Source of the DNA: a virus
Taxonomy: Duplodnaviria > Caudoviricetes
Strand: one strand, 5' to 3'
Length of the DNA stretch: 62,504 bases
Virus record (IMG/VR): IMGVR_UViG_3300005914_000007
Span: 1-62,504 of that record
Shown here: positions 3,068 to 62,016 of the stretch, one piece after another
Layout of the letters: each line of letters opens with the position of its first letter
How positions within the stretch are numbered: the first letter of the stretch is position 1
Notes under the pieces: generated by a model
Database searches by the model: none
The model's input: only the letters and a program-made list of their open reading frames with translations
Told to the model about the DNA's origin: nothing
Translations under genes and position numbers: made by a program

Positions 3068-3110
3068 TGAACTACACATCAGCTAAAGACTGATGTGTTT
3101 TACGTTCCGT
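3068..3110 (-). mobile_element. 43-bp IS200/IS605-type mini element (left tip + hairpin + right tip)
   Basis: ACGGAACGTAAAACACATCAGTCTTTAGCTGATGTGTAGTTCA, near-identical to 12476 and 54256 copies. Confidence 0.7.
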
Positions 3111-3967
3111 TATATAAAGTGACCAATATTATCCCATAGAAATTTATAAACATCATTCACATCATATCTAACAACAATTATATCTATAAATATTTCCTCA
3201 CATAATTCAGTCCGTTTATTATTTAGTTCACATAAATTTTTATAAGTTTCTTTACCACCATACAATTCGATTGGTTGATAATTCTGCCTTGTTCTAAAAT
3301 CAATCACCTTACCAATAGAAGGAATATAAAAATCAAATGTTATATCAGTGGAATTGAATACATGATTTCTAGAATATGTAAGATTGTATCTATCTAAGAA
3401 TTTCACAATATCAGATACACTATCAAATTCAGAACAATCTTTACAATGTGTGAAAGAATTCAAATGTGATGATGCCTTTATTTCAATCTTTCCATGTTTA
3501 CTACAAACCAATTGTATCTGTGAATTTAAATTCGTATAATCATCTAATATATAATTATATTGATACTGATATATCATATTAGATCGATTTATGAAATTTT
3601 CAGCATCAACTCTATTAACAATATGACCTTTTAGATGTGATTTAGCCATCTGGTTCACATATCTATCTAAATGTGTGTCAAATATAGACACTGTTTTATT
3701 CATTCCATCAAATACACATCTATCATATATAAATCTATCTTTCCAAATTAATTGTGATTGTTCGATGAATTGATTATTACTCATCTTAATAGGAGTCTTC
3801 TCAGGAGATTTACCAGACAAGTGTTTACCTGGTGTCTGATAATACATTTCATCACCGTATATGATACATACAGGTGTTCTGTAATTGATATAATTTACCT
3901 CCGAATAATCATATTTATATCCCCACGTTAATTTAGCCTTTCTTAAGAAATTTCTTTTTTTACTCAT
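3110..3967 (-). CDS. Homing-endonuclease-like protein (DUF723-like repeats + degenerate Vsr/DUF559-type nuclease)
   Basis: KYDYSEVNY..C..HG..HL repeats; FDFYIP...IDF C-terminal domain. Confidence 0.6.
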   Translation of the reverse strand: MSKKRNFLRKAKLTWGYKYDYSEVNYINYRTPVCIIYGDEMYYQTPGKHLSGKSPEKTPIKMSNNQFIEQSQLIWKDRFIYDRCVFDGMNKTVSIFDTHLDRYVNQMAKSHLKGHIVNRVDAENFINRSNMIYQYQYNYILDDYTNLNSQIQLVCSKHGKIEIKASSHLNSFTHCKDCSEFDSVSDIVKFLDRYNLTYSRNHVFNSTDITFDFYIPSIGKVIDFRTRQNYQPIELYGGKETYKNLCELNNKRTELCEEIFIDIIVVRYDVNDVYKFLWDNIGHFI

Positions 3968-4038
3968 TTGATTATCAGTCTTTATGTATATATAAGTTAA
4001 TTCACACCCCCTTGAAAATTCTTTCCCGACTCGATTTG

Positions 4039-4065
4039 AAACAGAGTGTGTTTTATTTGATATAT
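4039..4065 (+). promoter_or_regulatory. Putative middle promoter AAAC-N17-ATATA
   Basis: Same spacing recurs upstream of about 10 replication/metabolism genes. Confidence 0.55.
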
Positions 4066-4085
4066 ATTAAAAAGAATGAATTTAA

Positions 4086-5303
4086 ATGGCTAAAAAACAA
4101 AGTAAAAAAGAAGGGTTCTCATTCTCGAAAGTGGGCGACCTATTAAATAGTATTACATCGAAAGTTGCAATTGTGATTGAAACAGAAGCAAAAGAAAAGA
4201 AGTTTATCTCAACAGGAGTATATCTCTTAGATGCCGCACTCTCAGCACGTATGTTGGGTGGTGGTATCGAATATGGTAAAATATTCACCGTAGCAGGAGA
4301 CTCAGGAACTGGAAAATCTTTCGTAGCATTATCGGCTGCTAAAAACGCACAAAGAGATGGTATGGGTGTTATTTACATCGATACCGAATATTCAATTCAA
4401 TTTGGTGACTTACCAAATTATGGTATTGATAATGATCCTGAAAAATTCAAATTGGTTAGGTCAAATAAAGTTGAAGATATAAATATTCTACTTTCCCAAT
4501 TATTGGATGAATTAAAACAAGAGAAGTTGAAGAATGGTTCTATACAACCGTTCCTTATTGTACTTGACTCACTTGGTCAAATGTCTTCTAATAAAGAAAA
4601 GACTGACTTACTTAAAGGTGATCTCAAAGTTGATATGACAAGAGCTAAAGCAATGGCTGCAATGTTTCGTTCAATTAACAGTGACCTTGGGTACTTGAAT
4701 ATACCAATGATTGTGTGTAACCACGTATATCTAGAACAAGGATCGATGTATCCTCAACAAATACTTAAAGGTGGTAAGGCTCTTGTTTATTCAAGTTCTG
4801 TTATCGGTATGATGAGTAAAGCTAAATTGAAGACTGGTCAAGAAGATGATATGGACCTCGGTGCATCAGGTATCGTAGTGACATTCAAAACTGCCAAAAA
4901 TAGATTGGCTAAACCAAAGAAAATAAAATTCGAAATATCTTTTGTATCAGGTTTGAATCCTTTCACTGGATTAGATGCTTTTTGCCAACCAGAGTTCTAT
5001 GAAGAAATTGGGATTGCTAAAGGTAAAGAAGAAGTTGATAAAAGTACGGGAGAAATTACTTTCAAACCAGGTGGTGTAAGATGGTATGTAAGACACCTTG
5101 GGAAGTCAGTATTCACCAAGGATTTATTCAAAGCTAACGTATTCACAGATGAAGTTATGAAGAAAATGGAGCCGATTGTAAATGATTATTTCAGATACCG
5201 ATCAATCGATGAAATCGAAGATGCTGTAAATGAATTTGATGATATTCAAGAAGATGATCCAACAGATTATGACGAGTTTAACGCTGATGAATTATTTCAA
5301 TAA
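4086..5303 (+). CDS. uvsX: RecA-like recombinase
   Basis: ISTG..LD..LS, Walker A GDSGTGKS, YIDTE, VLDSLG, GGKAL.Y. Confidence 0.93.
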   Translation: MAKKQSKKEGFSFSKVGDLLNSITSKVAIVIETEAKEKKFISTGVYLLDAALSARMLGGGIEYGKIFTVAGDSGTGKSFVALSAAKNAQRDGMGVIYIDTEYSIQFGDLPNYGIDNDPEKFKLVRSNKVEDINILLSQLLDELKQEKLKNGSIQPFLIVLDSLGQMSSNKEKTDLLKGDLKVDMTRAKAMAAMFRSINSDLGYLNIPMIVCNHVYLEQGSMYPQQILKGGKALVYSSSVIGMMSKAKLKTGQEDDMDLGASGIVVTFKTAKNRLAKPKKIKFEISFVSGLNPFTGLDAFCQPEFYEEIGIAKGKEEVDKSTGEITFKPGGVRWYVRHLGKSVFTKDLFKANVFTDEVMKKMEPIVNDYFRYRSIDEIEDAVNEFDDIQEDDPTDYDEFNADELFQ

Positions 5304-5453
5304 ATAATAGTAATTATGAAAGTCGTATTATATAAAACAAACAAAAAAGGATTAGTCCAATATCGTTATAGAGGAAAATTTCTATTCAAGGCTGGTAGTA
5401 GTAATGTCACAAACACAAAATACAACTTTCAATGATATTATTTGATTTATATG

Positions 5454-5497
5454 ACGGAACGTAAAACACACAAGTCTTTAGCTTGTGTGATGTAAGT
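5454..5497 (+). mobile_element. IS200/IS605-type left-end copy
   Basis: ACGGAACGTAAAACACACAAGTCTTTAGCTTGTGTGATGTAAGT; perfect hairpin, different 3' tip from the 43-bp copies. Confidence 0.65.
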
Positions 5498-5516
5498 AAG
5501 TATAAATCAAATCATT

Positions 5517-5542
5517 AAAAGCCCTCAGAGATGAGGGCTTTT
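5517..5542. terminator. Intrinsic terminator, possibly bidirectional
   Basis: AAAAGCCCTCA-gaga-TGAGGGCTTTT. Confidence 0.8.
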
Positions 5543-5550
5543 AATTTTTT

Positions 5551-5937
5551 ATGTATATATTTACAATGTGTATACAAAAATGTCATAAAGAAAAACTGAA
5601 CATGAGAACAACATACGGAAATCACGGAAATATCTTTGAAGACCAATACAAATATATGGAGTTTAGATTACTGGCTAAAAAGTCAGGAAAACTTAATACT
5701 TCCGATGAAGATATTAGTCAGTTAGAAGACCAAATGAAAGAAATTAGAAAACAATTCAAAGTTGACGAAAAAATAGAAAAAGTAGAACAGACAGAAGAAG
5801 TTGTACTTCTATCTAAGATTTCAAAACTAGAAAACACATTAAATAATAAAAAATTCTTAGATAATGTAAGTGATTCGGTTAAAGACGTTAAAGTTAAAGA
5901 ACTTGAAAAATTAAAAGAAGAACTTGAAAAGTTTTAA
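5551..5937 (+). CDS. Coiled-coil protein, C-terminus resembles ValRS tRNA-binding arm (start may be 5602)
   Basis: LLSKISKLENTLNNKKFLDNVSDSVKDVKVKELEKL. Confidence 0.45.
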   Translation: MYIFTMCIQKCHKEKLNMRTTYGNHGNIFEDQYKYMEFRLLAKKSGKLNTSDEDISQLEDQMKEIRKQFKVDEKIEKVEQTEEVVLLSKISKLENTLNNKKFLDNVSDSVKDVKVKELEKLKEELEKF

Positions 5938-5967
5938 GAAATGTAAGTTGTAGTTCATACTACAACA

Positions 5968-6204
5968 TTATAAATATTTATTGTAAGTTCCACCGATATT
6001 ATTAGTAGTTACTAAGTAATTTTTAGGTCCAGTAATTCGATAGGGACTTATTTTTGAAATCTGATTAGGGTACTTTGTGAAATACTCTACTAGTTCTTTC
6101 TTAATATCATATTCGTCTTGCTCATTATCAATATCCATCATAAGTGATAGCTTATACCAATTGTTATCTACGTAGTTCTGTATTTCTGAAGGTGTATGTT
6201 CCAT
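5968..6204 (-). CDS. Hypothetical protein
   Basis: ORF track; co-oriented with upstream gene. Confidence 0.65.
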   Translation of the reverse strand: MEHTPSEIQNYVDNNWYKLSLMMDIDNEQDEYDIKKELVEYFTKYPNQISKISPYRITGPKNYLVTTNNIGGTYNKYL

Positions 6205-6230
6205 AAAGTAAATAAAAAATTAGATAGTTA

Positions 6231-6932
6231 TCATGATGTTACATGTTTTTGACTCGGATTCATACCGATAAATCCCAACTCTGTTTTTTTAACTTCTTCA
6301 CATCCAAGAATTTCTTTCAAAACCTCGGTAACTTTTTCGTGTGTTAAGAACTCCTCACAATATTTTGCCAATTTATTCTCATCTAAGAATTTACCAATTT
6401 CTAATTCCACTGAAAATCCCTTTACTTTAACTTTCGATGTCTTAACAGATTCTTCAACCATACCTTTCATATTTTCCGTAATAGCCGTTATATCATCTTT
6501 CGTGAATACAACACAATCACTATCAGAAAGAATACCATCAACATTAAACATATGTTTTGCCGGATTGGTCACATTTATTCTACTCAAAGATGTATCAAAG
6601 GCATCGGCCAAAATTTTCTCGTGTTGTAAACCGGCATTTGGTAAGTTACTATAAACATCAACCTCATTATTCTCAATAGATTCTGATACGAAACTTTCAA
6701 ATGTTAAAACTTGATCTATTTCCATAGAAACTCTATCATTGATTATATCATCTATAACACGACCGATAAGGTTTATGTCTGATAGACCATTCTTTTCTAA
6801 GAATGAATCAACTCTCGATTTACTTAAATATTTTTTAAGCTTTGATGGCTTTATATTCCATTCTTCTAAATAAGCATCAATGTACTTATTAACAAGATCA
6901 TAGTACTTATTTAGATCTTCTCGTGTCTTCAT
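6231..6932 (-). CDS. Hypothetical late protein (start revised to MKTREDL)
   Basis: ATG follows a TATATA box; internal LTFESFVSES motif. Confidence 0.7.
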   Translation of the reverse strand: MKTREDLNKYYDLVNKYIDAYLEEWNIKPSKLKKYLSKSRVDSFLEKNGLSDINLIGRVIDDIINDRVSMEIDQVLTFESFVSESIENNEVDVYSNLPNAGLQHEKILADAFDTSLSRINVTNPAKHMFNVDGILSDSDCVVFTKDDITAITENMKGMVEESVKTSKVKVKGFSVELEIGKFLDENKLAKYCEEFLTHEKVTEVLKEILGCEEVKKTELGFIGMNPSQKHVTS

Positions 6933-7018
6933 ACAACTATATATAAAATACACAAACCTTAAAACCTTCACAAAATTAAGTGTATAATAATAAATTAACT
7001 AAATTAATATTAAACTAA

Positions 7019-7213
7019 ATGAAGACTAAATTAAACCAAGTACAAATAGACTTTCTTACTGACCAACCAGAAACTGGAATGGGATATCAGAAAGTCAATA
7101 TCGTAATGAGTGATGATAATACCATTGATAATGTTACGGTTCTCAATTCAGAGTATTTAGAAACAGATGAGAACATTGACATCAATGAGATTACACACAT
7201 TACTCTAGTGTAA
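7019..7213 (+). CDS. Hypothetical protein (PETGMGYQ motif)
   Basis: ORF track. Confidence 0.7.
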   Translation: MKTKLNQVQIDFLTDQPETGMGYQKVNIVMSDDNTIDNVTVLNSEYLETDENIDINEITHITLV

Positions 7214-7464
7214 TAAAAAAGATAAATTAAATATTAGGAGGTAAAGATTGGGATTTATACATAGGGTTTGAGAGATGTGGATACACAAAAACATTTTTGT
7301 TCTTGTGTCGAAACACGAAGACAAGAGTAACGATTTTACCGATTACTCATCATCTTTATTTTCATTGCTTTCACCATACATGATATTTGGAAAACCACAC
7401 TATAAGTCGGGTTTTTTGTGCAATGTGGATTTTTAATATATAGAAACAAATCCAATCAAACTGA

Positions 7465-8370
7465 ATGTTTTTATCAGCCTCTAAATCTTATCATAACCGA
7501 AAACCGGTCGAGTTCATTATAAAGGAATCTTATAACAATCTCAGAGAAGACCGTGAGTTCATACCAAGATTTTCGTTTAAGGATATAACTGAGTTTAAGA
7601 ACATACCTATAAACGAACCAGTAAAGTATAACCAAGATATAATGGTCAAAGCTATCAAGTATGGTATGATTTTCTTACTAAACTATAAAGGTGAAGAAGA
7701 TAACCACTTCTCCGGACACGAAAGAGTAATATATCCCATGGTTATGGGTCGATCATCAAAGGGTAAGGTTTTGTTAAGAGGTTGGCACTTGAATGGATGG
7801 TCAGTATCTAAGAACCGACACATCAATAAAATATGGAGGTTATTCCGAGCCGATAGAATACTATCAATGACATTTACTGGATCATTCTACCGTTTGGCCC
7901 CACAAGGTTATAAAATGTATGATAAAGGAATGAGAGGTGGTATAATTGCCAGTGCTGATTTTAATGCAATCCGTAGAAATCAACAGGCTCTTGTTAAAAA
8001 GAATCACTTACAGAACAGAGATGAAGTATCACTTGGCACAGACGATAGAAAATTTGCAACTATACGTATAACACAAACAGATTCAAAGCTAGATTTAAAA
8101 GCAGCCGATGAGAATCCATACATAAACAACTTAAAGAGTGTTGATAATGTACGTATTAGTTTTCTGAAGTCAATATATGGATCACAGTATATAGCTGTAT
8201 TAGGAGCAATCGGAAGACCTGGTAACACAATTAAAGTATTAACCGATGCTGGTGATAACTTAGGAATTTATAAAGTATTAGACTCAACTACTGGTGCGGT
8301 ATTGAAGAATGTTAAAAATGTCAAGGGTAATAATATATACGACCTTTATGTTTTTGATAAGAAATTGTAA
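7465..8370 (+). CDS. WYL-domain-like protein
   Basis: ERVIYP..G...LLRGW...WRLFRADRILS. Confidence 0.6.
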   Translation: MFLSASKSYHNRKPVEFIIKESYNNLREDREFIPRFSFKDITEFKNIPINEPVKYNQDIMVKAIKYGMIFLLNYKGEEDNHFSGHERVIYPMVMGRSSKGKVLLRGWHLNGWSVSKNRHINKIWRLFRADRILSMTFTGSFYRLAPQGYKMYDKGMRGGIIASADFNAIRRNQQALVKKNHLQNRDEVSLGTDDRKFATIRITQTDSKLDLKAADENPYINNLKSVDNVRISFLKSIYGSQYIAVLGAIGRPGNTIKVLTDAGDNLGIYKVLDSTTGAVLKNVKNVKGNNIYDLYVFDKKL

Positions 8371-8399
8371 ACATTACCGTATAACAATATATAACAAAC

Positions 8400-8891
8400 A
8401 TGCAGGCATATAGTCAACAAGAATTAGATCATATAAAGAAAGTAAAAGATAAGAATGACCGATTAGAAAACTTTTTTCTTCAAAAAAGAGAAGTATGGTC
8501 CAAAGATTTAAAACCTCTTTTCGAAGTAGTCAAACTCCAACTAACACGGGAAACATCTATACGTATCACAGAAACACAATCACTAGCTTTGGCTTACCGA
8601 CAGAGAGCAAATGAACACATTTCCGAATTTCTAGACAAACGATCTAGACAAGATGTCAAAATAAAGAAACTAAAACAAGACAAGTTCTTATTTTACGCAA
8701 CCGGATTTGGTGTAAAGACCAATTATGGTGAAAAACAAATTCTTATCGAAGCTCACTTGGGTGAAGAACAGAGAAATATGGAAATTATTGAAAATTATAT
8801 TGAATTTCTTAGATTGATGAATAAAAACCTTGAAGCATTACAATACACTATTAAGAACATCATCGAACTTTTCAACATACTATCTAGATAA
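8400..8891 (+). CDS. UvsY-like recombination mediator
   Basis: Helical 163 aa, EKQILIEA...IEFL...LQYTIKNIIE pattern; middle promoter upstream. Confidence 0.5.
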   Translation: MQAYSQQELDHIKKVKDKNDRLENFFLQKREVWSKDLKPLFEVVKLQLTRETSIRITETQSLALAYRQRANEHISEFLDKRSRQDVKIKKLKQDKFLFYATGFGVKTNYGEKQILIEAHLGEEQRNMEIIENYIEFLRLMNKNLEALQYTIKNIIELFNILSR

Positions 8892-8926
8892 TTTGAACTT
8901 TTCAAAACACAACACATATATTATAC

Positions 8927-9235
8927 ATGATTTACATTGCTAAAAAAGATATTTATATACTCGATAAAGTAATATTCAGTGAGGGTGAAGAAATACTAGT
9001 TGAGAATAATATCGTTAAGAAAAATTCGGATGGTATAAAAATATCATTACCACTAGAAGATTTTAAATCAGATTTTTATATAAAACACAAAACTATTGAT
9101 GTTAAATTTAAAGAATTAGATCAGACCGATGAACAAGTTTGTACGTGGAGATTACAGTTGGATGTCAAAACTACACGCACAAAGGCAAAAGAAATTGAGA
9201 AGTTTCTGAGAGAAAGCTTGGAATCAATGATTTAA
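8927..9235 (+). CDS. Hypothetical protein
   Basis: ORF track. Confidence 0.7.
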   Translation: MIYIAKKDIYILDKVIFSEGEEILVENNIVKKNSDGIKISLPLEDFKSDFYIKHKTIDVKFKELDQTDEQVCTWRLQLDVKTTRTKAKEIEKFLRESLESMI

Positions 9236-9252
9236 TTTATAATTTTGTAACG

Positions 9253-9855
9253 ATGAAGTTACACATAATTAGAAGTGGAGATTTAATAAAACCATTACCT
9301 ATACCTACCAAAGACGGGAAGTTTGTTATGAAGATGTCTGTCAGATATGTATATGCTGATACTTCTTTAATTTACGATAAAAACGATTTTCTAATGAGAC
9401 TTTATCAGAAAGAAAGAAAGACAAAGGGAACATTAAATATCCGAAGTACACCAATAACAACTAGACATTTTATATGTGTCACTATTAATAATGAAATAAA
9501 ATTCCTATCCCTTGGTAGATCACTCAATATAATGTTGAATGATTATATTTGTGATGTGAACAGTAAAGGACACATTTCAGTAGATATTAAACACAGTAAA
9601 CAAGGATATCTCATATTTGATGGATCTCGTGAAATTGCTATTAGAGGTCATGAACCACTAGTCGATTCAACAGAACTACAAGATTGGGCTGATTATGTTA
9701 GAGAGAATCAAGATTCGTATTTAGAAGATTATATAACCAAACGTAACCTAAGCAGTCAAGAATCCGAACTCGAAAAAATATATTGGCCAGGGTGTCTGAA
9801 CGAACTTATACAAGATGATAGAAACTCAAAACTTGGAAATATACTAAACATATGA
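9253..9855 (+). CDS. Hypothetical protein with C-terminal RNSKLGNIL motif
   Basis: ORF track; TAATTTTG box at 9240-9247. Confidence 0.7.
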   Translation: MKLHIIRSGDLIKPLPIPTKDGKFVMKMSVRYVYADTSLIYDKNDFLMRLYQKERKTKGTLNIRSTPITTRHFICVTINNEIKFLSLGRSLNIMLNDYICDVNSKGHISVDIKHSKQGYLIFDGSREIAIRGHEPLVDSTELQDWADYVRENQDSYLEDYITKRNLSSQESELEKIYWPGCLNELIQDDRNSKLGNILNI

Positions 9856-9919
9856 TTTACATTATAATCATACTTTAATAAACAATTAATTTACAAATTA
9901 ATATAAAAGACAAATCAAC

Positions 9920-10825
9920 ATGATAGATACCGAAGATTACACAATAGGAGTAGTAGTTGCAAGATTACAAGTTGATGATATACATGAGGGACATCATTAT
10001 ATAATCAAACAAGTTTCTGAAAACCACGGTAAGATTATCATTTTTCTTGGAGTACCGGAATTTGTAGGAAACTTAGAAAATCCACTTGATTTCAATACAA
10101 GAAAATTAATGGTACAAAAGGATTATCCTAATGCCGTCATAATGTCATTGCCTGACCAAGAAACAAATACAAGATGGGCATCTGAATTAGATAGACGAAT
10201 AAGAGAGGTTTTCCCAGAGTCACAAGGTGATGTATTAATGTATGGATCAAGAGATTCGTTCATCCCATCATATAAGATTGGTGGTGGTTCATTCGAATCA
10301 ACCGAATTAAAGCAACTTGGTACTTATACAGGTACCGATATCAGAAAGAAAATATCAGAAGTTAGTATAGCAACACGAGATTTTAGATATGGATGTATCT
10401 ATACGGCATACAATACTCCACCACGAATCATGCCAGCAGTTTATATCGTTCCACAAAAGAATGGTAAAGTATTATTGGCTAAAAAATTCTTCGATACGAA
10501 ATATCGATTCATTGGTGCAATTGTTAAAGAAAATAAAAATACATTAGAATCTATCGGTAAATCCATACTATCTGATAAAATTGGACTGATGGAAACCGAT
10601 GAATTTAAATATCTATTCTCCTCAAATATGAATGATTGGAGAGTAAGGTCAAGTCGTGATAGTATCATGGCAACAGTATTCGAGACTAAATTACTTTATG
10701 GACATCCACAACCATATAATGGTTATGAAGAAGTAAAAGAGTTTGAAATGAAGGATTTGAAAAAAGAAATAATGATTGATTCACATCAACCATTACTAGA
10801 AGAATATCTTAAAATAAAAAACTAA
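9920..10825 (+). CDS. nadM: NMN adenylyltransferase fused to degenerate Nudix domain
   Basis: ARLQ...HEGH, NPL.F..R, GSRDSF, TGT.IR; Nudix-like C-half; adjacent to nadV. Confidence 0.85.
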   Translation: MIDTEDYTIGVVVARLQVDDIHEGHHYIIKQVSENHGKIIIFLGVPEFVGNLENPLDFNTRKLMVQKDYPNAVIMSLPDQETNTRWASELDRRIREVFPESQGDVLMYGSRDSFIPSYKIGGGSFESTELKQLGTYTGTDIRKKISEVSIATRDFRYGCIYTAYNTPPRIMPAVYIVPQKNGKVLLAKKFFDTKYRFIGAIVKENKNTLESIGKSILSDKIGLMETDEFKYLFSSNMNDWRVRSSRDSIMATVFETKLLYGHPQPYNGYEEVKEFEMKDLKKEIMIDSHQPLLEEYLKIKN

Positions 10826-10830
10826 TTGTT

Positions 10831-12426
10831 ATGAAAAGATCATTAAAGAGAAGTATTAAACGAAGGTTCGAAGCAGCCATACAATCAAAAAATTTCGATG
10901 AGTTTGTTGAATTACAGCCATTGATAGAGAAATTGTTCGATAAACCGAACAATCTAATTTTACTCAGTGATGGGTATAAGTATTCACACCAAAAATTCTA
11001 TTCAGATAAACTTGAAAAAATGGGTTCGTATCTAGAATCGAGAGGTGGTGAATTCTCAGAAACAGTATTCTTTGGACTTCAGTATTTTCTAAAACATTAT
11101 CTTGAAGGTATAGCAATAACGGCAGATGATGTTGATGAAGCACACGACTACCTTGGTACAGAATTTGGGATATTTGGACGTGATGGTGTGTTCGATCGTT
11201 CAAAATTCGATTACATTGTTAAAGAACACGGTGGGAAACTACCAATCAGAATCAAAGCTGTTCCCGAAGGTACAGTTGTTACAACGAAGAACGTACTTCT
11301 ATACATTGAGAATACTGATCCAAATTGTGCTTGGCTTACCAACTTCCTCGAAACACTCATTCTGCAAGTGTGGTACCCAATCACGGTAGCAACACTTTCA
11401 AGAGAAGTTAAGAAACTTGTTAAATCAGCTTTTGATGAAATGACTGACTTACCAGTTGAAACGAAGAATTTCTTGATGGAATTTGTTCTAAACGACTTTG
11501 GTTTCAGAGCATCAACATCAGTTCAATCGGCTGGAATCGGTGGGGCGGCACACCTATTGAACTTCTTTGGTTCAGACACAACGGCAGCATCTAAACTTAT
11601 CAGAGAATACTACAATACGGATTTGATTTATGGAAAAACTGTTCCAGCAACAGAACACTCTATTATGTGTCTCGAAGGTAAGGAGGGTGAGGCTAATATG
11701 ATGAGAAGAGTCCTAGAAGAGTTTCCGGACCATATCGTAGCTTGTGTGTCTGATACGTATGACATTCAGAACGCTGTTGATAACATTTGGGGTAAAGAGT
11801 TGAAGTCAATGATACTCAACAGACCCGAATTACCGGGTAATCAACTTGTGATTCGTCCTGATAGTGGTCATGTTATTAACACATTGATTACAATATTCAA
11901 ATCACTCTTCTCATCATTTGGATATACAACGAATACAAAGGGTTATAAAGTATTACCTCCACAAGTTCGAGTTATTCAAGGGGATGGTGTAAACATCGGT
12001 TCAATTGATGAAATATATGACATGTTACGAAGAGAGAAGATTTCTCCTGAGAACCTTGTTTTTGGTATGGGCGGTAAACTACTACAGGCGGAGATTGATA
12101 GAGACAAACAGAATTTTGCAACTAAGGCTTGTTACGCTATCTATGACGGTGAAGAACGAAATGTTGTTAAGAGCCCGACTGAAATAGATGAGAACTTCAA
12201 AACTTCACAATCATTCAAGAAGTCAAAACAAGGTATTCCAAAACTTGTTAAAGTAACGGATGGATATATCACTGTTACATCTACTGATTCAACATTTGAT
12301 GATGTAATTGATGAAATGGAATGGGTATATGAGTACGGTGTTATTCTTAAAGAATTAAAATATGAGGATATACGAGAGAGAGCATCAATTAACGATATTG
12401 TAACAGAAGTTTCAGAATTGGTATGA
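10831..12426 (+). CDS. nadV: Nicotinamide phosphoribosyltransferase
   Basis: SDGYKYSH, FFGLQY, DFGFR, PATEHS, VSDTYD, IRPDSG, IQGDG, FGMGG. Confidence 0.96.
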   Translation: MKRSLKRSIKRRFEAAIQSKNFDEFVELQPLIEKLFDKPNNLILLSDGYKYSHQKFYSDKLEKMGSYLESRGGEFSETVFFGLQYFLKHYLEGIAITADDVDEAHDYLGTEFGIFGRDGVFDRSKFDYIVKEHGGKLPIRIKAVPEGTVVTTKNVLLYIENTDPNCAWLTNFLETLILQVWYPITVATLSREVKKLVKSAFDEMTDLPVETKNFLMEFVLNDFGFRASTSVQSAGIGGAAHLLNFFGSDTTAASKLIREYYNTDLIYGKTVPATEHSIMCLEGKEGEANMMRRVLEEFPDHIVACVSDTYDIQNAVDNIWGKELKSMILNRPELPGNQLVIRPDSGHVINTLITIFKSLFSSFGYTTNTKGYKVLPPQVRVIQGDGVNIGSIDEIYDMLRREKISPENLVFGMGGKLLQAEIDRDKQNFATKACYAIYDGEERNVVKSPTEIDENFKTSQSFKKSKQGIPKLVKVTDGYITVTSTDSTFDDVIDEMEWVYEYGVILKELKYEDIRERASINDIVTEVSELV

Positions 12427-12475
12427 GAACATTTGATTCAAGTGATATGACAAGATGGGATAAAAGGTTTATATG

Positions 12476-12518
12476 ACGGAACGTAAAACACACAAGTCTT
12501 TAGCTGATGTGTAGTTTA
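12476..12518 (+). mobile_element. 43-bp IS200/IS605-type mini element
   Basis: ACGGAACGTAAAACACACAAGTCTTTAGCTGATGTGTAGTTTA, within a broken small ORF. Confidence 0.7.
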
Positions 12519-12634
12519 TGAAATTAAACGTATTTCGTCTAATCACGGGAAACCATTATATTTGATGATACATATGATGAACAACCGGAGTTTTTAACCA
12601 AATCTAGAATTTCTAAATTAGAAGATTTGTTAAA

Positions 12635-13408: not shown

Positions 13409-13418
13409 AACTATTAAT

Positions 13419-13757
13419 TTATTTTATAGCTCCACGAACAGCCTTTTCAATAACATCAAGACAATCTCTTAAATTATTAACATCTACACGCTCACCATTT
13501 TCGAATAAGATAGATGATTGACCATTGATGGTCCATTCCTTGCTTCCAAAACTTGGATTACTAATATCGGTTAAGGAACACACCATCTCAAAAGAACTCC
13601 CAGTTGGATCCTTTTTCGTACATGTGAATAGAATATTTCCCTCAGCATTAGATGATAAAGATTCTAATTCTTGAAATCTTGATTTCATAAGTTTTGTTGC
13701 GTCTACAACACTATCCCCATATTCCTCAAAAAATTTTATCAATCTACTCATAAACAA
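13419..13757 (-). CDS. Hypothetical protein, related to N-half of 12635..13408
   Basis: MSRLIKFFEEY; both share M..i..l.s and ...L(D/E)(V/I)IEK(A/S)V.G. Confidence 0.7.
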   Translation of the reverse strand: MFMSRLIKFFEEYGDSVVDATKLMKSRFQELESLSSNAEGNILFTCTKKDPTGSSFEMVCSLTDISNPSFGSKEWTINGQSSILFENGERVDVNNLRDCLDVIEKAVRGAIK

Positions 13758-13800
13758 ATCCTATTTTAAAGTATATATTAAGTATAAATAACCACAATAA

Positions 13801-14580: not shown

Positions 14581-14742
14581 AATAAACAAAAAAGGACGTA
14601 ATAAGATAAATAGTTATCTAGAAACTATCAAATATTAAAGTTTATCATCAGTTAAAAATACAACATATTAAAACAAAAATAACAATATAGACATAATTAA
14701 GTATATCATTACATAGAGAGGCTCTTAAGTAATATATAATTT

Positions 14743-15286: not shown

Positions 15287-15297
15287 ATATATAACAT

Positions 15298-15768: not shown

Positions 15769-15787
15769 GAAAAATTAATATTAATTA

Positions 15788-16600: not shown

Positions 16601-16638
16601 CCATCAACTCATTATTTAAATAAATAAAATTAATAATT

Positions 16639-54181: not shown

Positions 54182-54255
54182 GATTTTAAATATTTATTTT
54201 TAATTATATACTTAAATAATTAAATAGTTTATATCAAGTATGGATTTTTTATATA

Positions 54256-54298
54256 ACGGAACGTAAAACACATAAGTCTTTAGCTGATGTGTAGTTCA
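54256..54298 (+). mobile_element. 43-bp IS200/IS605-type mini element
   Basis: ACGGAACGTAAAACACATAAGTCTTTAGCTGATGTGTAGTTCA. Confidence 0.7.
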
Positions 54299-54358
54299 TA
54301 CTATTAATCTAAATGTGTTTAAAATTAAATTACTATACCTATCAAATGACTCAATTAA

Positions 54359-54523: not shown

Positions 54524-54865
54524 TTATTTATTCATAAAGGATCTAATTAAATCAGTTGCACTAACGACAGCAGGTATTACTTTCTCAATGATATCCTTGT
54601 GTAAAGCATCTTTATCATTATTCAAATCTTCATTCGTCTTTAGTAATTGTGCAATCGTTTTATTCTTATCTTCTAATCTATCGGCATGTATTTTATTAAT
54701 GACACCAAATGCTGTTAATAAAAATCCAGCCAACACAACAATAACCCACCTCATCCATTCAAATCCATCACTAGTAATGGGTGGTTCGGTGATAATAATC
54801 TGAGGCATTACCAAAACTGGGAAAATAATCTGTGCAATCATAAATAAAAAAACTTTTTTCTTCAT
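54524..54865 (-). CDS. Membrane protein with coiled coil (holin-like)
   Basis: Signal-like N-terminus, TM helix, coiled coil. Confidence 0.55.
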   Translation of the reverse strand: MKKKVFLFMIAQIIFPVLVMPQIIITEPPITSDGFEWMRWVIVVLAGFLLTAFGVINKIHADRLEDKNKTIAQLLKTNEDLNNDKDALHKDIIEKVIPAVVSATDLIRSFMNK

Positions 54866-54922
54866 ATCTTTTCTTTTTATTAAACTAATGTATATATAAA
54901 AATGATATAATAGGTTTTTTTA

Positions 54923-54969
54923 ATAACTCATATGTATTATAATCTATTGATATAACTCATATGAGTTAT
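54923..54969. promoter_or_regulatory. 18-bp perfect palindrome plus 12-bp partial copy
   Basis: ATAACTCATATGAGTTAT 54952-54969; ATAACTCATATG 54923-54934. Confidence 0.6.
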
Positions 54970-55026
54970 TTAACAGAGCATTTGTGAAATTTATATATAT
55001 ACAGTAAAATAAAAATAAAAATAAAA

Positions 55027-55353
55027 ATGTCACACAAAGAAAATATAAACAAGATACACTTTGACCTTACTACCCAATTCGAAAACGTTACAATCGAAGA
55101 AAACGCTGATAGAACATTTGGAAACTATGTTAAGATAGGTGTAACAGAAGGTCTTGAGCTAACAGCCATGATTGAGAAAGTTTCAATTGAAAATGATTCA
55201 TTCAGATGGTTCTATCTATCCGACCCAGCAAATGAAAAATCAATTGTAGAACGAAAGTCAAACATACACACATTCGCCAAAGACGTAAAAGGTATTTTTG
55301 ATAATAAAAGATTTGACGAAGATTATATCAAGAGGATTGAAGAAGAAAAATAA
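55027..55353 (+). CDS. Hypothetical protein
   Basis: ORF track. Confidence 0.7.
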   Translation: MSHKENINKIHFDLTTQFENVTIEENADRTFGNYVKIGVTEGLELTAMIEKVSIENDSFRWFYLSDPANEKSIVERKSNIHTFAKDVKGIFDNKRFDEDYIKRIEEEK

Positions 55354-55360
55354 GTAAATT

Positions 55361-57076
55361 ATGAACTTTATACAGATATCATTCAATAATATAAAGGCCG
55401 AGACCGAAAGATTTCTTAGACAGGAACACAGTAAGGCTTCTCTACTTTATTCACCAGCATCACCATTTGGGCATATATTATCAGCAATACAGAATTATCA
55501 ACAGTTATCTTTCCTGTACCTTAAAAATGCTCTAAGAGGTTTTGATTTGAGTTTACCAAATTCAAATAATCCTAAGATAATAAGAAATGCTGCCATATTC
55601 GCAGGTCATAGTCCAGGAAGAGCTATCTCATCAACCGGAACCCTTAAATTGGCTGTTAAATCTGGGATAGACCTCGAAACAGAATTGAGAGGTGGTCGTG
55701 TAACACTTAAAAATAGATTATTACTGAAGAATAACACAAACGGACTTTTCTACTCACTCAATCTTGGTCAAGATAAAATAACATATCAGGTAAGTACAAC
55801 AACTCAGATATTCTTACCAATAATACAGGGTAGAAGTAAAGAAACCAAATTCACTGGTAAAGGAGAAATAAATTCTTCATACCAAGTAGCACTTAAAGGA
55901 AATCAAAACATAGAAAACTTCAATGTTGAGGTACTTGTGAATGGTCAATATTGGATAGTAAAGAAGCATCTTTATGAATTATTGCCTAGTGAAAAATCAT
56001 GCGTTGTTAAAACAGGATTTAACGATGGTATTGATGTTATATTTGGAAATGGAGGATTTGGTAAGATACCTGACATTGGATCAACAATAATAATAAAATA
56101 CTTAGTGACTGACGGTAGTGTGGGTAATATATTTAGAAGAACTCCGAACGACTGGACATTTGTTGAAGATGCACTCGATGGGTTTGGTGGTACATTAGAT
56201 GTAACATCCATTTTTGACATACTCATTTTTAATGACATAAACTTTGGTAGTGATAAAGAGAGTGTTAAATTTACTAAGAATCTATTACCAATAGCTTCGA
56301 ATAACTTTGTACTTGGATTACCACAACAATACGCATACGAGATTAAAAAATTGGGAGTTTTCTCTCATGTAAATGCTTATGAGAACGATAGTATTATATT
56401 CATCGTAGCCACACCAAACATAAGATTGTTTAAGAATAGAAATGCTGATTACTTCTCAGTTAATATCACAGCCTTTGAATTAGATGATTATGAGAAATCG
56501 AAACTTGATAAATACATCCGTGGAAATGGTAATATACAATTGACTCGTAAGTATAGAATCGATTCACCCAAGTTATCATATTACATAATAAATGTTTTCA
56601 TCGTTAGATATTCGGATGTAAATGACGATTCCGTAAATGCACAAATAACCGACATCGTATCAGAATACTTTTTGGACTTAAATAGAATAAGTAGGATACC
56701 GAAATCTGACCTTATATCAAGTTTAGCTGGTTTAAATGATATACACTCAGTTGATGTACAATTCATATCTAAGAAGAATGAAGACTATCACAGAAACAAT
56801 AAGATAAAGTCCGATAATAAATTGGCGGCATCTGAATCACGAATAGCTCCTATTGGAACCGAAATTGATCCGGATTACCAACCAGATTTGGCAGTAGGTC
56901 TTGACCCAGTACTTGGTGATATTCTCTTCGAATCAGAAGAATATCCAATTGTGAGAGGTGGTTGGTATGACCGCAATGGTGTTTATTTCTCACCAGATAT
57001 AAAAGACACTAATCTTAAATCAATAAACATAATAAAGACTGGTGTTGTTGATTCAAAACAAAGGAGTAATAAATAA
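55361..57076 (+). CDS. gp6-like baseplate wedge subunit
   Basis: A...GH.P.RA.S, FGNG.FG..P..G..I.I.YL...G..GN, G.D.ES. Confidence 0.85.
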   Translation: MNFIQISFNNIKAETERFLRQEHSKASLLYSPASPFGHILSAIQNYQQLSFLYLKNALRGFDLSLPNSNNPKIIRNAAIFAGHSPGRAISSTGTLKLAVKSGIDLETELRGGRVTLKNRLLLKNNTNGLFYSLNLGQDKITYQVSTTTQIFLPIIQGRSKETKFTGKGEINSSYQVALKGNQNIENFNVEVLVNGQYWIVKKHLYELLPSEKSCVVKTGFNDGIDVIFGNGGFGKIPDIGSTIIIKYLVTDGSVGNIFRRTPNDWTFVEDALDGFGGTLDVTSIFDILIFNDINFGSDKESVKFTKNLLPIASNNFVLGLPQQYAYEIKKLGVFSHVNAYENDSIIFIVATPNIRLFKNRNADYFSVNITAFELDDYEKSKLDKYIRGNGNIQLTRKYRIDSPKLSYYIINVFIVRYSDVNDDSVNAQITDIVSEYFLDLNRISRIPKSDLISSLAGLNDIHSVDVQFISKKNEDYHRNNKIKSDNKLAASESRIAPIGTEIDPDYQPDLAVGLDPVLGDILFESEEYPIVRGGWYDRNGVYFSPDIKDTNLKSINIIKTGVVDSKQRSNK

Positions 57077-58755
57077 TGTTAATATCTAAAACATCAATCG
57101 TTAAATCAAGAGGTAATAATAAATTATCATATTATAGTGAAGTTGGATATGATACCTCCAATCCAACTTTTGAAGTAATAATTAATGACCTATTACCAAA
57201 CTCATCTTATATAGTTGAGGTTTCATGTGATTACTGTAATGATATTATAAAAACTCCATATAAAAGGTATATTAAGAATACAACCACTTCACTTGTGAGG
57301 AAATATGCATGTAAAGGATGTGTTACTGATAAAAGAAAAGAATCTAATCAAATTAAGTATGGATGTGATAACCCAATGCAAAATAGGGAAGTGTTAGAAA
57401 AAACCAAAAATACAAACCTAGAAAGATATGGTGTTGAATATGTTTTACAATCCAAGGTTATTAAAGAGAAAATAAAGAAAACCAATTTGAAAAATAGTGG
57501 TTTCGAAAATCCATTCCAGTCCGAAATTATTAAAGAGAAAATAAAGAAAACCAATTTAGAAAAATATGGACATGAGAATCCATTCCAGTCCAAGGTTATT
57601 AAAGAGAAAATAAAGAAAACCAATTTAGAAAAATATGGTGTTGAATATTATACACAATCTGGTGAATTTCTATATGATAAAGAATTGAATAAGGAAAAAA
57701 TAAAGAAAACCAATTTAGAAAAATACGGTGGCCATCCAATGTCAAATGATATTATAAGAAGTGATTTTAATATATCAAATGATGTGAATTATTTATACTA
57801 TAATAGTGATAGTATATCAACATTTAAATGTCACAAGGGACACACATTCAGTATAAGTAGTGATAATTATTCATCACGTAAATGGTTTGATGTAAACATA
57901 TGTACGATATGTCAACCTATAAATTCATCAATATCGACACAGGAGAAAGAAGTATTTCATTTCATAACATCTGTATATGATGGTAAGGTTATTGAAAACT
58001 ACAGAGATGGTTTGGAGATAGATATTTATTTACCAGACATCCAAATTGGATTTGAATATAATGGATTATACTGGCACTCCGAGGAACACAAAAGTAAATA
58101 TTACCACATAAATAAATCTGAACATTTTATTGAAAGGGGAATACGTATAATTCACATATGGGAAGATGAATGGAAATATAAGTCCGGTATAATTAAAAGT
58201 CAGATAAAAAATTGGATAGGTTTAACAGATTTCAAAATACCCGGAAGGAAATGTAGTGTGATAGAATTAAAAAACCCATCAGACTTCCTAAAACATAACC
58301 ATATACAGGGTAAGTGTCCATCAAGTTTTAATTTAGGTCTTAAATATAATGACGAATTGGTATCCGTTATGTCATTTGATAGATTTGAAGGTCGTAAAAA
58401 AATGTTAGAGGGTGAGTGGAATCTATCTAGGTTTTGTAATCGTGAAAACACCATTGTTGTCGGTGGATTTTCAAAACTACTATCTTACTTCATTAAAAAT
58501 ATACACACCACCAGGATAATAACTTATGCAGATAAATCATGGAGTAATGGGTTATTATATGAAAGAACTAACTTCAAAATAACTAAAATATTGAAACCAG
58601 ATTATAAATATATACAAAACGGAATAAGATTGAATAAAACTAAGTATCGTAAAGGTCGATCTACGAATAATATGTCGGAAAAGCAATATACACAAAGTCA
58701 TAATATTAAAAAAATATATGATTGTGGTAAGATAAAATTTGAATTGATTATATGA
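57076..58755 (+). CDS. Homing-endonuclease-like protein (paralog of 17502)
   Basis: KTNLEKYG repeats; EIDIYLPD..FEYNGLYWHSE; GNAT-like tail. Confidence 0.75.
   Translation: MLISKTSIVKSRGNNKLSYYSEVGYDTSNPTFEVIINDLLPNSSYIVEVSCDYCNDIIKTPYKRYIKNTTTSLVRKYACKGCVTDKRKESNQIKYGCDNPMQNREVLEKTKNTNLERYGVEYVLQSKVIKEKIKKTNLKNSGFENPFQSEIIKEKIKKTNLEKYGHENPFQSKVIKEKIKKTNLEKYGVEYYTQSGEFLYDKELNKEKIKKTNLEKYGGHPMSNDIIRSDFNISNDVNYLYYNSDSISTFKCHKGHTFSISSDNYSSRKWFDVNICTICQPINSSISTQEKEVFHFITSVYDGKVIENYRDGLEIDIYLPDIQIGFEYNGLYWHSEEHKSKYYHINKSEHFIERGIRIIHIWEDEWKYKSGIIKSQIKNWIGLTDFKIPGRKCSVIELKNPSDFLKHNHIQGKCPSSFNLGLKYNDELVSVMSFDRFEGRKKMLEGEWNLSRFCNRENTIVVGGFSKLLSYFIKNIHTTRIITYADKSWSNGLLYERTNFKITKILKPDYKYIQNGIRLNKTKYRKGRSTNNMSEKQYTQSHNIKKIYDCGKIKFELII
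57451..57648 (+). repeat. 69-nt coding tandem repeat (about 3 copies)
   Basis: ttattaaagagaaaataaagaaaaccaattt recurs at 69-nt spacing. Confidence 0.85.
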
Positions 58756-58967: not shown

Positions 58968-58970
58968 GAC

Positions 58971-59923: not shown

Positions 59924-59924
59924 T

Positions 59925-61043
59925 TTAGGTTTTATTATAATATTCTAATAAATATTCCTTATTTTTACGCTTAATCCACCTATAGCAAGTTTTACCATAT
60001 TTAATTTTAAATTCTTTAATATCCGAGCATGTGATTATAGATTCCATAGCTAAATCATCACACCAATTTACCCTATTCTTAGACAACTCACCAGTTAATT
60101 TATCAAATATTTTCATACGGTGTAGTTTATAAAATAATTTACTATTCATCTTACGTAAATCATAAATATTGTCATATTTTGATATCTCTTCTTTCATTTT
60201 CTCAACATGATAGATATTTTTATATATCACATCATAATCAACATATACATCACACACATCAATACCCAATATACATGTTAGTTGTTTTTTTATATCATAT
60301 TCATAATTATTTGAAATTTCTTTTATAAAGAAAACCATTATACCAAGTTCTTCACACATACCTTTTTTAATATTACTATTATCACCATTTCTATGCCAAT
60401 ATTTACCATCAAATTCAAATGCTATTTTAATTGAAGTGAAATACACATCCAATTCATATGGTTTAATTATTTTCCTATCATTGTACTCACATAACTCACC
60501 AAACACACTTTCTAATATGTACCGGAGTATTAATTGTGGGGTACTATATTTCCCAACATACATATGTGAACATATATCATCCAACACACCCATCCTAAGC
60601 GATGTTGTGTAGGCAACTGCATCATTTTCACAAAACTGTCCCCTCGTATAGTACTTAGATGATATTTCTTTTAATTTATCTATTGTGTATTTATAACCAC
60701 TCCTCGCCCTATTACGATCTGCTGAGATTTTTGAAATATACACATCATCTTTATATAAATTCATTTTTTTCACCATCCACCTAACTTCATCATATCCTTT
60801 ACACAACATTATAGCTATTTCTGAAGTTTCTTTTTTATTAAAATTTTCTTTCAGTAAAAAAATATCTTTATCCGACCACACATTACCAACACGTTTATAA
60901 TTTGAATCTTTTCTTAACCCCATTTTAACAGATTTGTTTAAAATCCGTCTTTTACTTTTACCCAATATATCACACAATTCATATAATTGTTTATTTGGAT
61001 AATTTAGCATTAATAATTCCACTTCATTTTCGGACCATCTCAT
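59925..61043 (-). CDS. Endonuclease-like protein (Myb/SANT-like repeats + DUF559-like nuclease)
   Basis: WS..E..LL..NY repeats; ELDVY...FEFDGKYWH. Confidence 0.7.
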   Translation of the reverse strand: MRWSENEVELLMLNYPNKQLYELCDILGKSKRRILNKSVKMGLRKDSNYKRVGNVWSDKDIFLLKENFNKKETSEIAIMLCKGYDEVRWMVKKMNLYKDDVYISKISADRNRARSGYKYTIDKLKEISSKYYTRGQFCENDAVAYTTSLRMGVLDDICSHMYVGKYSTPQLILRYILESVFGELCEYNDRKIIKPYELDVYFTSIKIAFEFDGKYWHRNGDNSNIKKGMCEELGIMVFFIKEISNNYEYDIKKQLTCILGIDVCDVYVDYDVIYKNIYHVEKMKEEISKYDNIYDLRKMNSKLFYKLHRMKIFDKLTGELSKNRVNWCDDLAMESIITCSDIKEFKIKYGKTCYRWIKRKNKEYLLEYYNKT

Positions 61044-61121
61044 AAACTATATATAAAAACAATGATCCTCCGATACTCAAAATGTTTTTAAAACATTCTT
61101 CACATATATTCATATAAATGT

Positions 61122-61847
61122 ATGGATGTTAATAAAATTTATTTAGGGGATTGTATAGATATAATGGATGATAGAATCGATGATAATTCAATTGATTTAA
61201 TTGTAACTGATCCACCATATGGTATAAATTACCAATCATTTCGAACTAATTCAAACATTATTAAAAATGATGATAATCTTCACTGGCTAGAAAACTTTTT
61301 CAAAATACTGAATACAAAAGCTAAAGACAACACACACCTTTACTGTTTTTGTGATTTTGAGATGTCTGCCGATTTCCTTATTGAGATAAGGAAATATTGG
61401 AAGGTTCGTAATATGTTGTGTATTCCACGTAAAATTAAAGGAAATGGTGGTGACCGTATATTTCAACAGCAGTTTGAAACTGTAATTTTCGCAACAAAGA
61501 AACAGGGTAGGAAATTCAACCAAACACAAATACTTAAACCCTCAGAGGGTTATTTGAAAGATAAGAGGTATAAGGCGAAAGAATGGCTTTATAGACTACC
61601 AGACCACTGGCATTGGACCACATCAAGTGAATTCAACCATACTAGACTACATCCAAACCAAAAGAATGTTGAATGTCTTAAAGATATGATATCATTATCA
61701 TCCAATCCGGGTGAAATAGTATTTGACCCATTTGTTGGTAGTGGTTCGACTTGTGTGGCTGCCAAAGAACTCAATAGAAAATATATCGGTTGTGAATTGG
61801 ATGAAAATTATTTCGAAATATCAACAAATAGACTTAACTCAATATGA
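61122..61847 (+). CDS. N4/N6 DNA methyltransferase (beta class)
   Basis: TDPPY, HPNQK, DPFVGSGST, GCE. Confidence 0.92.
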   Translation: MDVNKIYLGDCIDIMDDRIDDNSIDLIVTDPPYGINYQSFRTNSNIIKNDDNLHWLENFFKILNTKAKDNTHLYCFCDFEMSADFLIEIRKYWKVRNMLCIPRKIKGNGGDRIFQQQFETVIFATKKQGRKFNQTQILKPSEGYLKDKRYKAKEWLYRLPDHWHWTTSSEFNHTRLHPNQKNVECLKDMISLSSNPGEIVFDPFVGSGSTCVAAKELNRKYIGCELDENYFEISTNRLNSI

Positions 61848-62016
61848 ACTACACATTAGCTAAAGACTAATGTGTTTCGGGTTTCATAGAGTGTGCTTTA
61901 TTACTAAAGTCTGATTTTCTCTCCACCTTTGTATTGGACAGTCCCTGCCCAAATATTTTTAAACCTTCTTTTAGAATATTTTTACTCGCATTAATATCTC
62001 TGTCATGTGTTTCACC
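61845..62016 (-). mobile_element. tnpB: TnpB C-terminal remnant with IS200/IS605 right end (omegaRNA-sized segment)
   Basis: HDRDINASKNIL; ends GAAACACATTAGTCTTTAGCTAATGTGTAGTTCA. Confidence 0.75.

Follow-up and report, generated by a model that had tools for sequence, protein, structure and literature searches.

Short one-hairpin repeats in a large phage genome as probable remnants of IS200/IS605-family insertion sequences

The IMG/VR virus record IMGVR_UViG_3300005914_000007 (Caudoviricetes), analysed here over its whole length of 62,504 bp and referred to below as the window, carries six dispersed copies of a small DNA hairpin and one hairpin-less tip (5941-5958), which together are probably decay products of insertion sequence (IS) lineages of the IS200/IS605 family. 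Three of the copies are stubs in which a left-end (LE) tip and a right-end (RE) tip enclose a single hairpin, and these probably arose by deletion of the element core between the LE and RE hairpins. By CheckV estimate the window represents ~10% of the phage genome, and the stretch is present in 24 public runs labelled salt lake metagenome.

The hairpin core AGTCTTTAGCT has six exact matches in the window and, with up to one mismatch, ten matches vs 0.90 expected, a number reached in none of 100 shuffled sequences; the reversed control pattern of the core has no match in the window. The LE tip ACGGAACGTAAAACAC has four exact matches (0.36 expected at up to three mismatches), each of which is preceded by TTTATAT(A/G), and GTAGTTYAT is found seven times in the window vs 2.05 expected, five of the matches lying within known copies. 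On alignment the copies separate into LE, RE and fused forms, in agreement with an earlier note made from the sequence alone, which had placed a left end at 5454, right ends at 17422 and 61845 and fusions at the three remaining sites. All six copies described in that note exist, with three of its starts off by one (now 3067, 17421 and 61844), and the fusions do consist of LE tip, one hairpin and RE tip, at a length of 44 nt (ACGG...TTCAT) in place of the proposed 43, or 47 nt on the revised boundaries given below. Stems vary between copies by compensatory pairs (CAG/CTG at 3068, AAG/CTT at 5454 and TAG/CTA at 61845). When folded as single-stranded DNA, three of the six hairpins are good (-9.7 kcal/mol at 3067, -8.6 kcal/mol, and -8.9 kcal/mol at 61844; z -3.1 to -4.3), two are weak (-5.4 kcal/mol, z -1.3 at 12476 and -5.5 kcal/mol, z -1.5 at 54256) and the copy at 17422 does not fold (-1.9 kcal/mol, z +0.4). 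The six copies include no inverted doublets, and all are intergenic or lie at gene 3' ends.

The assignment of the repeats to a family comes from other viral contigs, where intact tnpA/tnpB elements carry the same motif as a subterminal hairpin at each end, as the earlier note had supposed in calling the copies IS200/IS605 ends. Scanning IMG/VR with the RE pattern returned 51 viral loci, and with the LE tip 10 loci (individual loci bear L numbers below). Eight loci have an LE hairpin and, 1226-1744 nt downstream of it on the same strand, an RE hairpin, and all ten full-length open reading frames (ORFs, 374-412 aa) ending at an RE contain the Pfam families OrfB_IS605, Cas12f1-like TNB and HTH_OrfB_IS605. 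The TnpB of L060 matches ISDra2 TnpB 8h1j at E 2.4e-81 and also 8bf8 at E about 1e-81. Elements of 1.73-1.74 kb have, between LE and tnpB, a divergent 137-aa gene for a Y1 transposase, which in L060 (809-1222, minus strand) matches Y1_Tnp at E 4.4e-32 (Pfam), ISHp608 TnpA (2a6m) at 3e-16 and chain 2xm3 at 1.5e-14, the last being titled only 'TRANSPOSASE' in the database and presumably ISDra2 TnpA. This tnpA is present in five distinct loci: L060, L037 (=L083), L041 (=L043), L059 and L079. Since the ends bracket tnpA/tnpB in these contigs, the family is, as judged from sequence, IS200/IS605, IS605 group, and the phage TnpB would be expected to recognise a transposon-adjacent motif (TAM) and to work with a guide RNA.

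Closest to the window copies is L007, where an LE of the window type precedes a 387-aa ORF that was recognised as tnpB-like by a tblastn match to the tnpB tail in the window, not by a family scan. Its RE hairpin is ACACATCAG/CTGATGTGT, and CTGATGTGT is the right arm of the fused units in the window; the short units accordingly carry the LE and RE tips of an L007/L013/L047-type element around one hairpin. LE and RE hairpins of the family have a common loop, TCTTTAG, with AG/CT closing pairs and compensatory changes in the arms, and stand in direct orientation without terminal inverted repeats. In the intact members the LE is inserted 3' of a TTTAT-type motif and the element ends ...GTAGTTCAT. 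We distinguish a subfamily 1, with the four LE-bearing window copies (LE hairpin ACACACAAG...CTTGTGTG, RE hairpin ACACATCAG...CTGATGTGT), from a subfamily 2, with the 61844 copy (tail ...SMKPETH, arms TTAG/CTAA), and the window copies stem from at least two lineages, probably three. The intact tnpA and tnpB that the earlier note had proposed to look for were found in other viral contigs and not in the window, where Pfam identified neither a Y1 transposase nor a TnpB among 75 ORFs and where the sole tnpA- or tnpB-like stretch by tblastn at E <1e-3 is the tnpB tail at 61870-62016, with no tnpA.

The RE pattern was also searched in one genome each of ~185,000 species and gave 10 loci, all on contigs of metagenome-assembled genomes (MAGs) of unrelated taxa, one of which evidently coincides with a viral record (30,817 bp in both, same context). 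Within the reach of this narrow, exact pattern the result suggests that the lineage is mainly phage-borne, and the family circulates in phage genomes of saline waters. Gene-less miniature elements of ~250 nt are abundant at many sites in metagenome loci (L112, L129, L210, L170, L164, L171) and consist of a window-type LE, what is left of the 3' end of tnpB (likely the guide-RNA scaffold) and an RE; shorter internal-deletion derivatives are seen in L193 (~150 nt) and L206 (~110 nt). In L034/L053 a second RE-like hairpin ending AGTTCAT lies ~95 nt upstream of the RE, which suggests that one element inserted immediately after the TTCAT terminus of another.

Sites of the window subfamily found in the window itself, in the viral loci and by a metagenome scan (at least 132 pattern matches, with 51 true and 81 chance 16-mers among the matches listed) were combined, giving at least 52 distinct sites. 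Among the matches listed, the bases from -7 to -2 are TTTATA with almost no exception (50-52 of 52), nothing is conserved further upstream, and other subfamilies also follow TTTATAT, with a few one-base variants. Right flanks are unrelated to left flanks and there is no target duplication. Among the matches listed, the seventh base is A, not T, in eight sites (variant TTTATAAG), and the variant is confined to one interior type (8/13 vs 0/39, Fisher p 1.7e-6), so that the seventh base travels with the element; the LE guide region is unchanged in these sites. For TnpB2 of ISGst2 the TAM was measured as TTTAT, and for an IscB belonging to that family as TTCAT (Meers et al. 2023 preprint, PMC10055086, from which the parts on these motifs and on excision are drawn on here). 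The target is thus most likely TTTAT, with AT(A/G) inside the element, and the TTTATAT(A/G) that the earlier note read as a fixed target, conserved as it is before the four LE tips, would include three bases of the element itself. The element would then start AT(A/G)ACGG and end ...GTAGTT(C/T)AT, which with this start makes the short units 47 nt long.

One-hairpin units account for 10 of the 85 distinct core contexts in the related loci and the window, and for 12 of the 52 or more distinct sites of the window subfamily among the matches listed. The arms of at least 12 such units are LE/LE in five, LE/RE chimeric in four, RE/RE in two and intermediate in one; among the matches listed, the junction lies at three or more places in the 12 units and the arms are mismatched in five. 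A chimeric unit of another subfamily is present in L045. It is because of these chimeric arms and varied junctions inside the LE/RE similarity that we call the units recombination products, and the suggestion of the earlier note that the ends had recombined through the shared hairpin is borne out to that extent. Further evidence comes from a graded series elsewhere, which runs from full elements through two-hairpin miniature elements (cores 75-236 nt apart) and internal-deletion forms to one-hairpin units. The class of RE with truncated or no tnpB, in which the one-hairpin units are included, comprises 19 of 46.

We therefore favour a scheme in which the near-identical LE and RE hairpins, sharing ~11-27 nt, would act as direct repeats, and in which recombination or replication slippage between them would delete the whole interior, much as a solo long terminal repeat is formed. 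The products in the window would be the three 47-nt stubs, one LE with a hairpin-less RE tip 444 nt away, one degenerate RE and, as a fourth kind, an RE attached to 49 tnpB codons in which the 5' part of tnpB was replaced by a GIY-YIG gene (Table 1). The deletion step is deduced from junctions and arms, and the stubs would be mostly inert because TnpA synapsis normally needs two hairpins. That the chimeric units fold poorly agrees with their being relics, in which nothing would select for the hairpin. Core deletion would rid the genome of the element, and the joint of TAM and flank, which is what TnpB cuts, would not be restored.

A decay of this type has been described in 2011 from Haloquadratum walsbyi, where HqIRS46 (390 bp) and ISHwa23 (1500 bp) gave 52-bp terminal-only palindrome-associated transposable elements (PATEs) by deletions running between palindrome repeats of 22 bp and 19 bp (Dyall-Smith et al. 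2011, PMC3119063, of which the sections on these elements are used here). Those PATEs resemble the window units in being of IS605 type and ~50 nt long, with termini fused by deletion between near-terminal palindromes, and differ in residing in an archaeal chromosome at 52 bp, in contrast to 47 nt in a large phage. The repeat of the window subfamily is also shorter and imperfect (11 nt exact, ~27 nt similar), so that junctions vary and chimeric, mismatched hairpins result, and unlike Haloquadratum the phage data hold no strain pair with an in-situ deletion. The window units retain LE and RE tips around one palindrome without coding capacity and are PATE-like, as the earlier note had it; they appear to be a remnant of a known kind in a less usual host and no new kind of element. 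A literature search, conducted below full-text level, found no paper on one-hairpin IS605 remnants in phages.

Likeness to other systems is more limited. The ISGst elements and PATEs of Geobacillus stearothermophilus are IS605-family elements with PATE-like derivatives, many copies without tnpA and scarless excision, and their TAMs, TTTAT for TnpB2 of ISGst2 and TTCAT for IscB of ISGst5, recur in the window as left flank TTTAT and end TTCAT; the comparison, made with the parts of PMC10055086 noted above, is one of motif and form, not of sequence relatedness. The TnpB and TnpA matches of L060 point to ISDra2 of Deinococcus radiodurans and to IS608 (ISHp608) of Helicobacter pylori, and in IS608, too, LE and RE hairpins resemble each other. 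End sequences and target motif differ from both, however (TTAC for IS608 and TTGAT for ISDra2), and tnpA and tnpB are divergent in the phage family. Repetitive extragenic palindromes (REPs) and bacterial interspersed mosaic elements (BIMEs) associated with RAYT (TnpA-REP) likewise are short dispersed single hairpins related to IS200/IS605 ends, but the window repeats have a low copy number, no inverted doublets and both LE and RE tips of a tnpA/tnpB element. The REP-like alternative offered in the earlier note consequently finds no support, no RAYT-like gene having been found (no Y1_Tnp among the 75 ORFs of a ~10% genome fragment).

It is also conceivable that the 47-nt units are active non-autonomous transposons, moved by TnpA in trans, and that the window copies result from transposition of short units. 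Dyall-Smith et al. raise this for the 52-bp form of ISHwa23, to which all six strain-specific insertions belong, and in the sections used here leave open whether the 52-bp forms still move (PMC3119063). In our data the TTTAT flank and the TTCAT/TTTAT tip are kept in all units, and the units at 3067 and 54253 are one base apart and could be copies of each other. Several observations weigh against recurrent core deletion and would also fit copying of short units: identical one-hairpin sequences are found at unrelated sites (five for the LE/LE type and four for the chimeric type, among the matches listed), and a rare 'A' variant before ACGG is enriched in one-hairpin units (3/12 vs 1/40, Fisher p 0.034, among the matches listed), the site counts of the subfamily being lower bounds from the metagenome scan. 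Nor did we find a site occupied by a full or miniature element in one genome and by a one-hairpin unit in a second, or a base-level empty site in relatives, public contigs, the metagenome scan or a flank search among related loci, and with ~90% of the phage genome unseen an intact element may lie elsewhere in it. We nevertheless consider mobility of the stubs unlikely. In the IS608 mechanism two hairpins are brought together by a TnpA dimer, each contributing a guide tetranucleotide, and a single hairpin offers only one; moreover, junctions at three or more positions and mismatched arms in 5 of 12 units (among the matches listed) fit recurrent formation with no selection acting on the hairpin, and the LE/LE type would also be produced by an element like L059, in which the LE hairpin does not differ from the RE hairpin.

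Two further readings raised in the earlier note fare less well than mobility. Co-option of some copies as transcription terminators or RNA hairpin signals, which would be compatible with an IS origin, could account for the position of all copies in intergenic DNA or at gene 3' ends, and a simple scan flags three of six (3074-3098 on the plus strand, 5489-5467 and 61875-61851 on the minus strand), with the hairpin followed by TTTTAC on the bottom strand. Against this, the flagged copies lie on mixed strands, those at 3074 and 5489 being antisense to neighbouring genes; a strong bidirectional terminator already exists at 5514-5545; the bottom strands of 12473 and 54253, which face the upstream gene, have mismatched weak stems; the top strand has no U-tract after the hairpin; three of six stems are weak or absent; and the copies are absent from the relatives examined. 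Lacking consistent support, co-option seems improbable to us. Scars of TnpA excision of full elements would explain why the units are exactly where an element would sit and why both tips are present, but in the excision of IS200/IS605 elements the flanks are joined again precisely and the donor joint bears no scar (PMC10055086, in the part on excision), and the excised circle joins RE to LE, opposite to the order seen, so that we give this explanation almost no credence.

Core deletion remains our preferred reading, and the absence of copies from relatives speaks for it. A search with the methylase yielded a collinear relative, a 151.9-kb record (G006) with 65-77% nucleotide identity, and its pieces covering the six sites have no copy; with this absence, and with the motif matching the ends of intact tnpB elements, the refutation proposed in the earlier note does not succeed. 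As a further point against our reading, its flanking proteins are only 26-78% identical and its intergenic DNA does not align with the window. At 54256 similarity to G006 stops after TTTTTAT, as at an empty site, but G006 has an extra gene there, and this candidate was rejected. The protein encoded by 3110-3967 (minus strand) has no relative in the viral collection, and four more distant relatives of the RecA locus from that collection (L219-L222, 61-77% identical) have no copy. Contigs of four salt-lake runs over 1-20000 break at the repeats (ends 3060/3081, 5473/5552 and 12496/12558), and none of those contigs bridges an empty or longer site. Apparent joints 3068/5457 and 3118/5445 were discarded, their short sides of 29-30 nt lying in repeat sequence, as was an apparent empty site for the L081 unit, which proved to be chance similarity in AT-rich DNA. 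A 24-mer at 8526, searched in metagenome contigs for sister assemblies, returned nothing. In the four salt-lake runs summed contig depth is 2-13x higher in copy-bearing bins (5337-6003 and 12007-12673), and the end sequences are therefore much more abundant in the community than the phage.

If the copies are products of core deletion, this large phage genome would record repeated invasion by IS605-type elements, followed by their loss through the hairpin-to-hairpin deletion first described in haloarchaea. Following the published homing model, a stub should escape the TnpB guide RNA, which bears on how TnpB-protected elements can be purged. The related loci, for their part, yield a collection of tnpA/tnpB elements carried by phages, whose ends are defined and whose motif is probably TTTAT. 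More speculatively, and on balance we doubt it, the lineage would live mainly in phages, the 47-nt stubs would still be mobilised in trans and core deletion would be an escape from TnpB-enforced retention. Were that true, the stubs would be about the smallest transposable DNA known, and co-infecting genomes still carrying the element could not cut a stub because the TTTAT-plus-flank joint is never re-formed.

Table 1. Hairpin copies and associated features in the window (LE, left end; RE, right end)
Feature	Position	Strand	Composition	TTTAT flank
Terminal-only unit	3067-3113	-	ATA + LE tip ACGGAACGTAAA + hairpin ACACATCAG/TCTTTAG/CTGATGTGT + RE tip AGTTCAT	3114-3118
Left end	5451-5497	+	ATG + ACGGAACGTAAA + hairpin CACACAAG/TCTTTAG/CTTGTGTG + ATGTAAGT	5446-5450
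Hairpin-less right tip (probable)	5941-5958	+	Exact ATGTAAGT (repeat of 5490-5497), then TGTAGTTCAT; 444 nt downstream
Terminal-only unit	12473-12519	+	Left arm ACACACAAG (LE-type), right arm CTGATGTGT (RE-type), tip AGTTTAT	12468-12472
Degenerate orphan RE	17421-17455	-	GAAAC + ACATATCAG/TCTTTAG/CTGTTGAGT + AGTTTAT
Terminal-only unit	54253-54299	+	Left arm ACACATAAG, right arm CTGATGTGT, tip AGTTCAT	54248-54252
RE, second subfamily	61844-61878	-	GAAAC + ACACATTAG/TCTTTAG/CTAATGTGT + AGTTCAT; arms TTAG/CTAA
tnpB remnant	61870-62016	-	Last 49 codons, GETHDRDINASKNILKEGL...SMKPETH
GIY-YIG + NUMOD3 homing-endonuclease-like coding sequence	62017-62391	-	Pfam GIY-YIG E 7.9e-8, NUMOD3 E 0.0036

The three terminal-only units differ in the make-up of their arms. 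Both arms are RE-type in the unit at 3067, which folds best (z -4.3) and has on its LE junction the TAA stop (3110-3112) of the minus-strand ORF 3110-3967. The unit at 12473 has chimeric arms with two mismatches and sits between the convergent genes 10831-12426 (plus strand, NAMPT-like) and 12635-13408 (minus strand); its junction type is seen at three other sites elsewhere, among the matches listed. The arms of the unit at 54253 are intermediate, with one mismatch.

The LE at 5451 is 100% identical over 5445/5446-5497 to the LEs of three other viral records. Its post-hairpin 8-mer, ATGTAAGT, recurs at 5941-5958 in front of the RE tip TGTAGTTCAT, and this tip is probably the right partner of the LE, so that the left end noted at 5454 would not be a lone end; the hairpin-less arrangement was not found in the other related loci compared. 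The 443-nt segment between the two ATGTAAGT copies (5498-5940, plus strand), bordered by the LE on one side and the hairpin-less RE tip on the other, contains a strong hairpin resembling a bidirectional terminator (5514-5545) and, at 5551-5937, an ORF of 128 aa that has neither a Pfam match nor a homologue at the syntenic place in G006. The segment may represent cargo, or it may have entered a terminal-only unit at a later time.

The degenerate RE at 17421 may extend ~45 nt further, to roughly 17500, and its upstream part matches no RE type seen elsewhere. It follows directly after the stop of the DUF7487/MTES_1575 gene 17502-19160 (minus strand), upstream of which (19161-19237) there is no LE, and its loop supplies the TAA (17438-17440) of the plus-strand ORF 17147-17440. 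The RE at 61844 contains the TAG stop (61867-61869) of the fused GIY-YIG/tnpB-tail ORF, and on the other strand the DNA methylase gene (61122-61847) ends within its tip, with a TGA at 61845-61847. Overlap with stop codons, claimed in the earlier note for four copies, was verified at three (3110-3112, 17438-17440 and 61845-61847).

Residues 126-174 of the fused ORF (61870-62391, minus strand) are identical to the C-terminus of the L060 TnpB at 40 of 49 positions (82%) and to that of L052 at 45 of 49 (92%), confirming the tnpB tail that the earlier note had recognised beside this copy; in intact elements this 3' region of tnpB probably overlaps the guide-RNA scaffold. The tail is in frame with the first 125 residues, which form the GIY-YIG and NUMOD3 part, and the junction falls at a G-E-T-H that both have in common. 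A TAA immediately precedes the frame, which lacks any ATG, GTG or TTG before residue 100, and the fused ORF may be a pseudogene or may use an unusual start codon. The fusion is absent from the other loci examined, the sole match (L055) lying on the strand opposite its RE. A degenerate LE at ~62400-62470 (minus strand) was considered on the basis of a forced alignment and a 13/14 match of TAAAGGGGTAACC and was not convincing.

Pfam searches of the 75 ORFs of the window identified phage-type genes (RecA-like ATPase, UvsW-like helicase, tail lysozyme, ClpP) along with NAMPT-like, DNA methylase, HNH and GIY-YIG genes and four DUF7487 genes. The DUF7487 genes are paralogous (17502-19160 on the minus strand; 25083-25472, 43209-44810 and 57076-58755 on the plus strand), two have an MTES_1575 nuclease-like part, and 69-bp internal repeats (57396-57648) are common to the paralogues and other viral records. 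The one that the orphan RE directly follows (17502-19160) has no match at the syntenic place in G006, and its DNA matches elsewhere in that record. No Rfam family reached its gathering score in the window, and none was found at E <=0.1 in seven related loci. The neighbouring cytidylyltransferase-like and NAMPT-like genes (9920-12426, plus strand) could be an NAD salvage pair, the NAMPT-like gene being only 26% identical to its G006 counterpart. A large ORF running off the window (3-2405, minus strand) has a DUF2793 match and collagen triple-helix repeats (1042-1385, 9-nt period over ~340 nt) and probably encodes a fibre protein. About 560 nt from the 54253 unit there is an intergenic inverted repeat (54863-55029) with 79-nt arms, 71% complementary and 9 nt apart. 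A 71-aa ORF at 38048-38263 (plus strand) matches the chlamydial histone H1-like Hc1 (Pfam E 5.8e-14), which is unusual for a phage.

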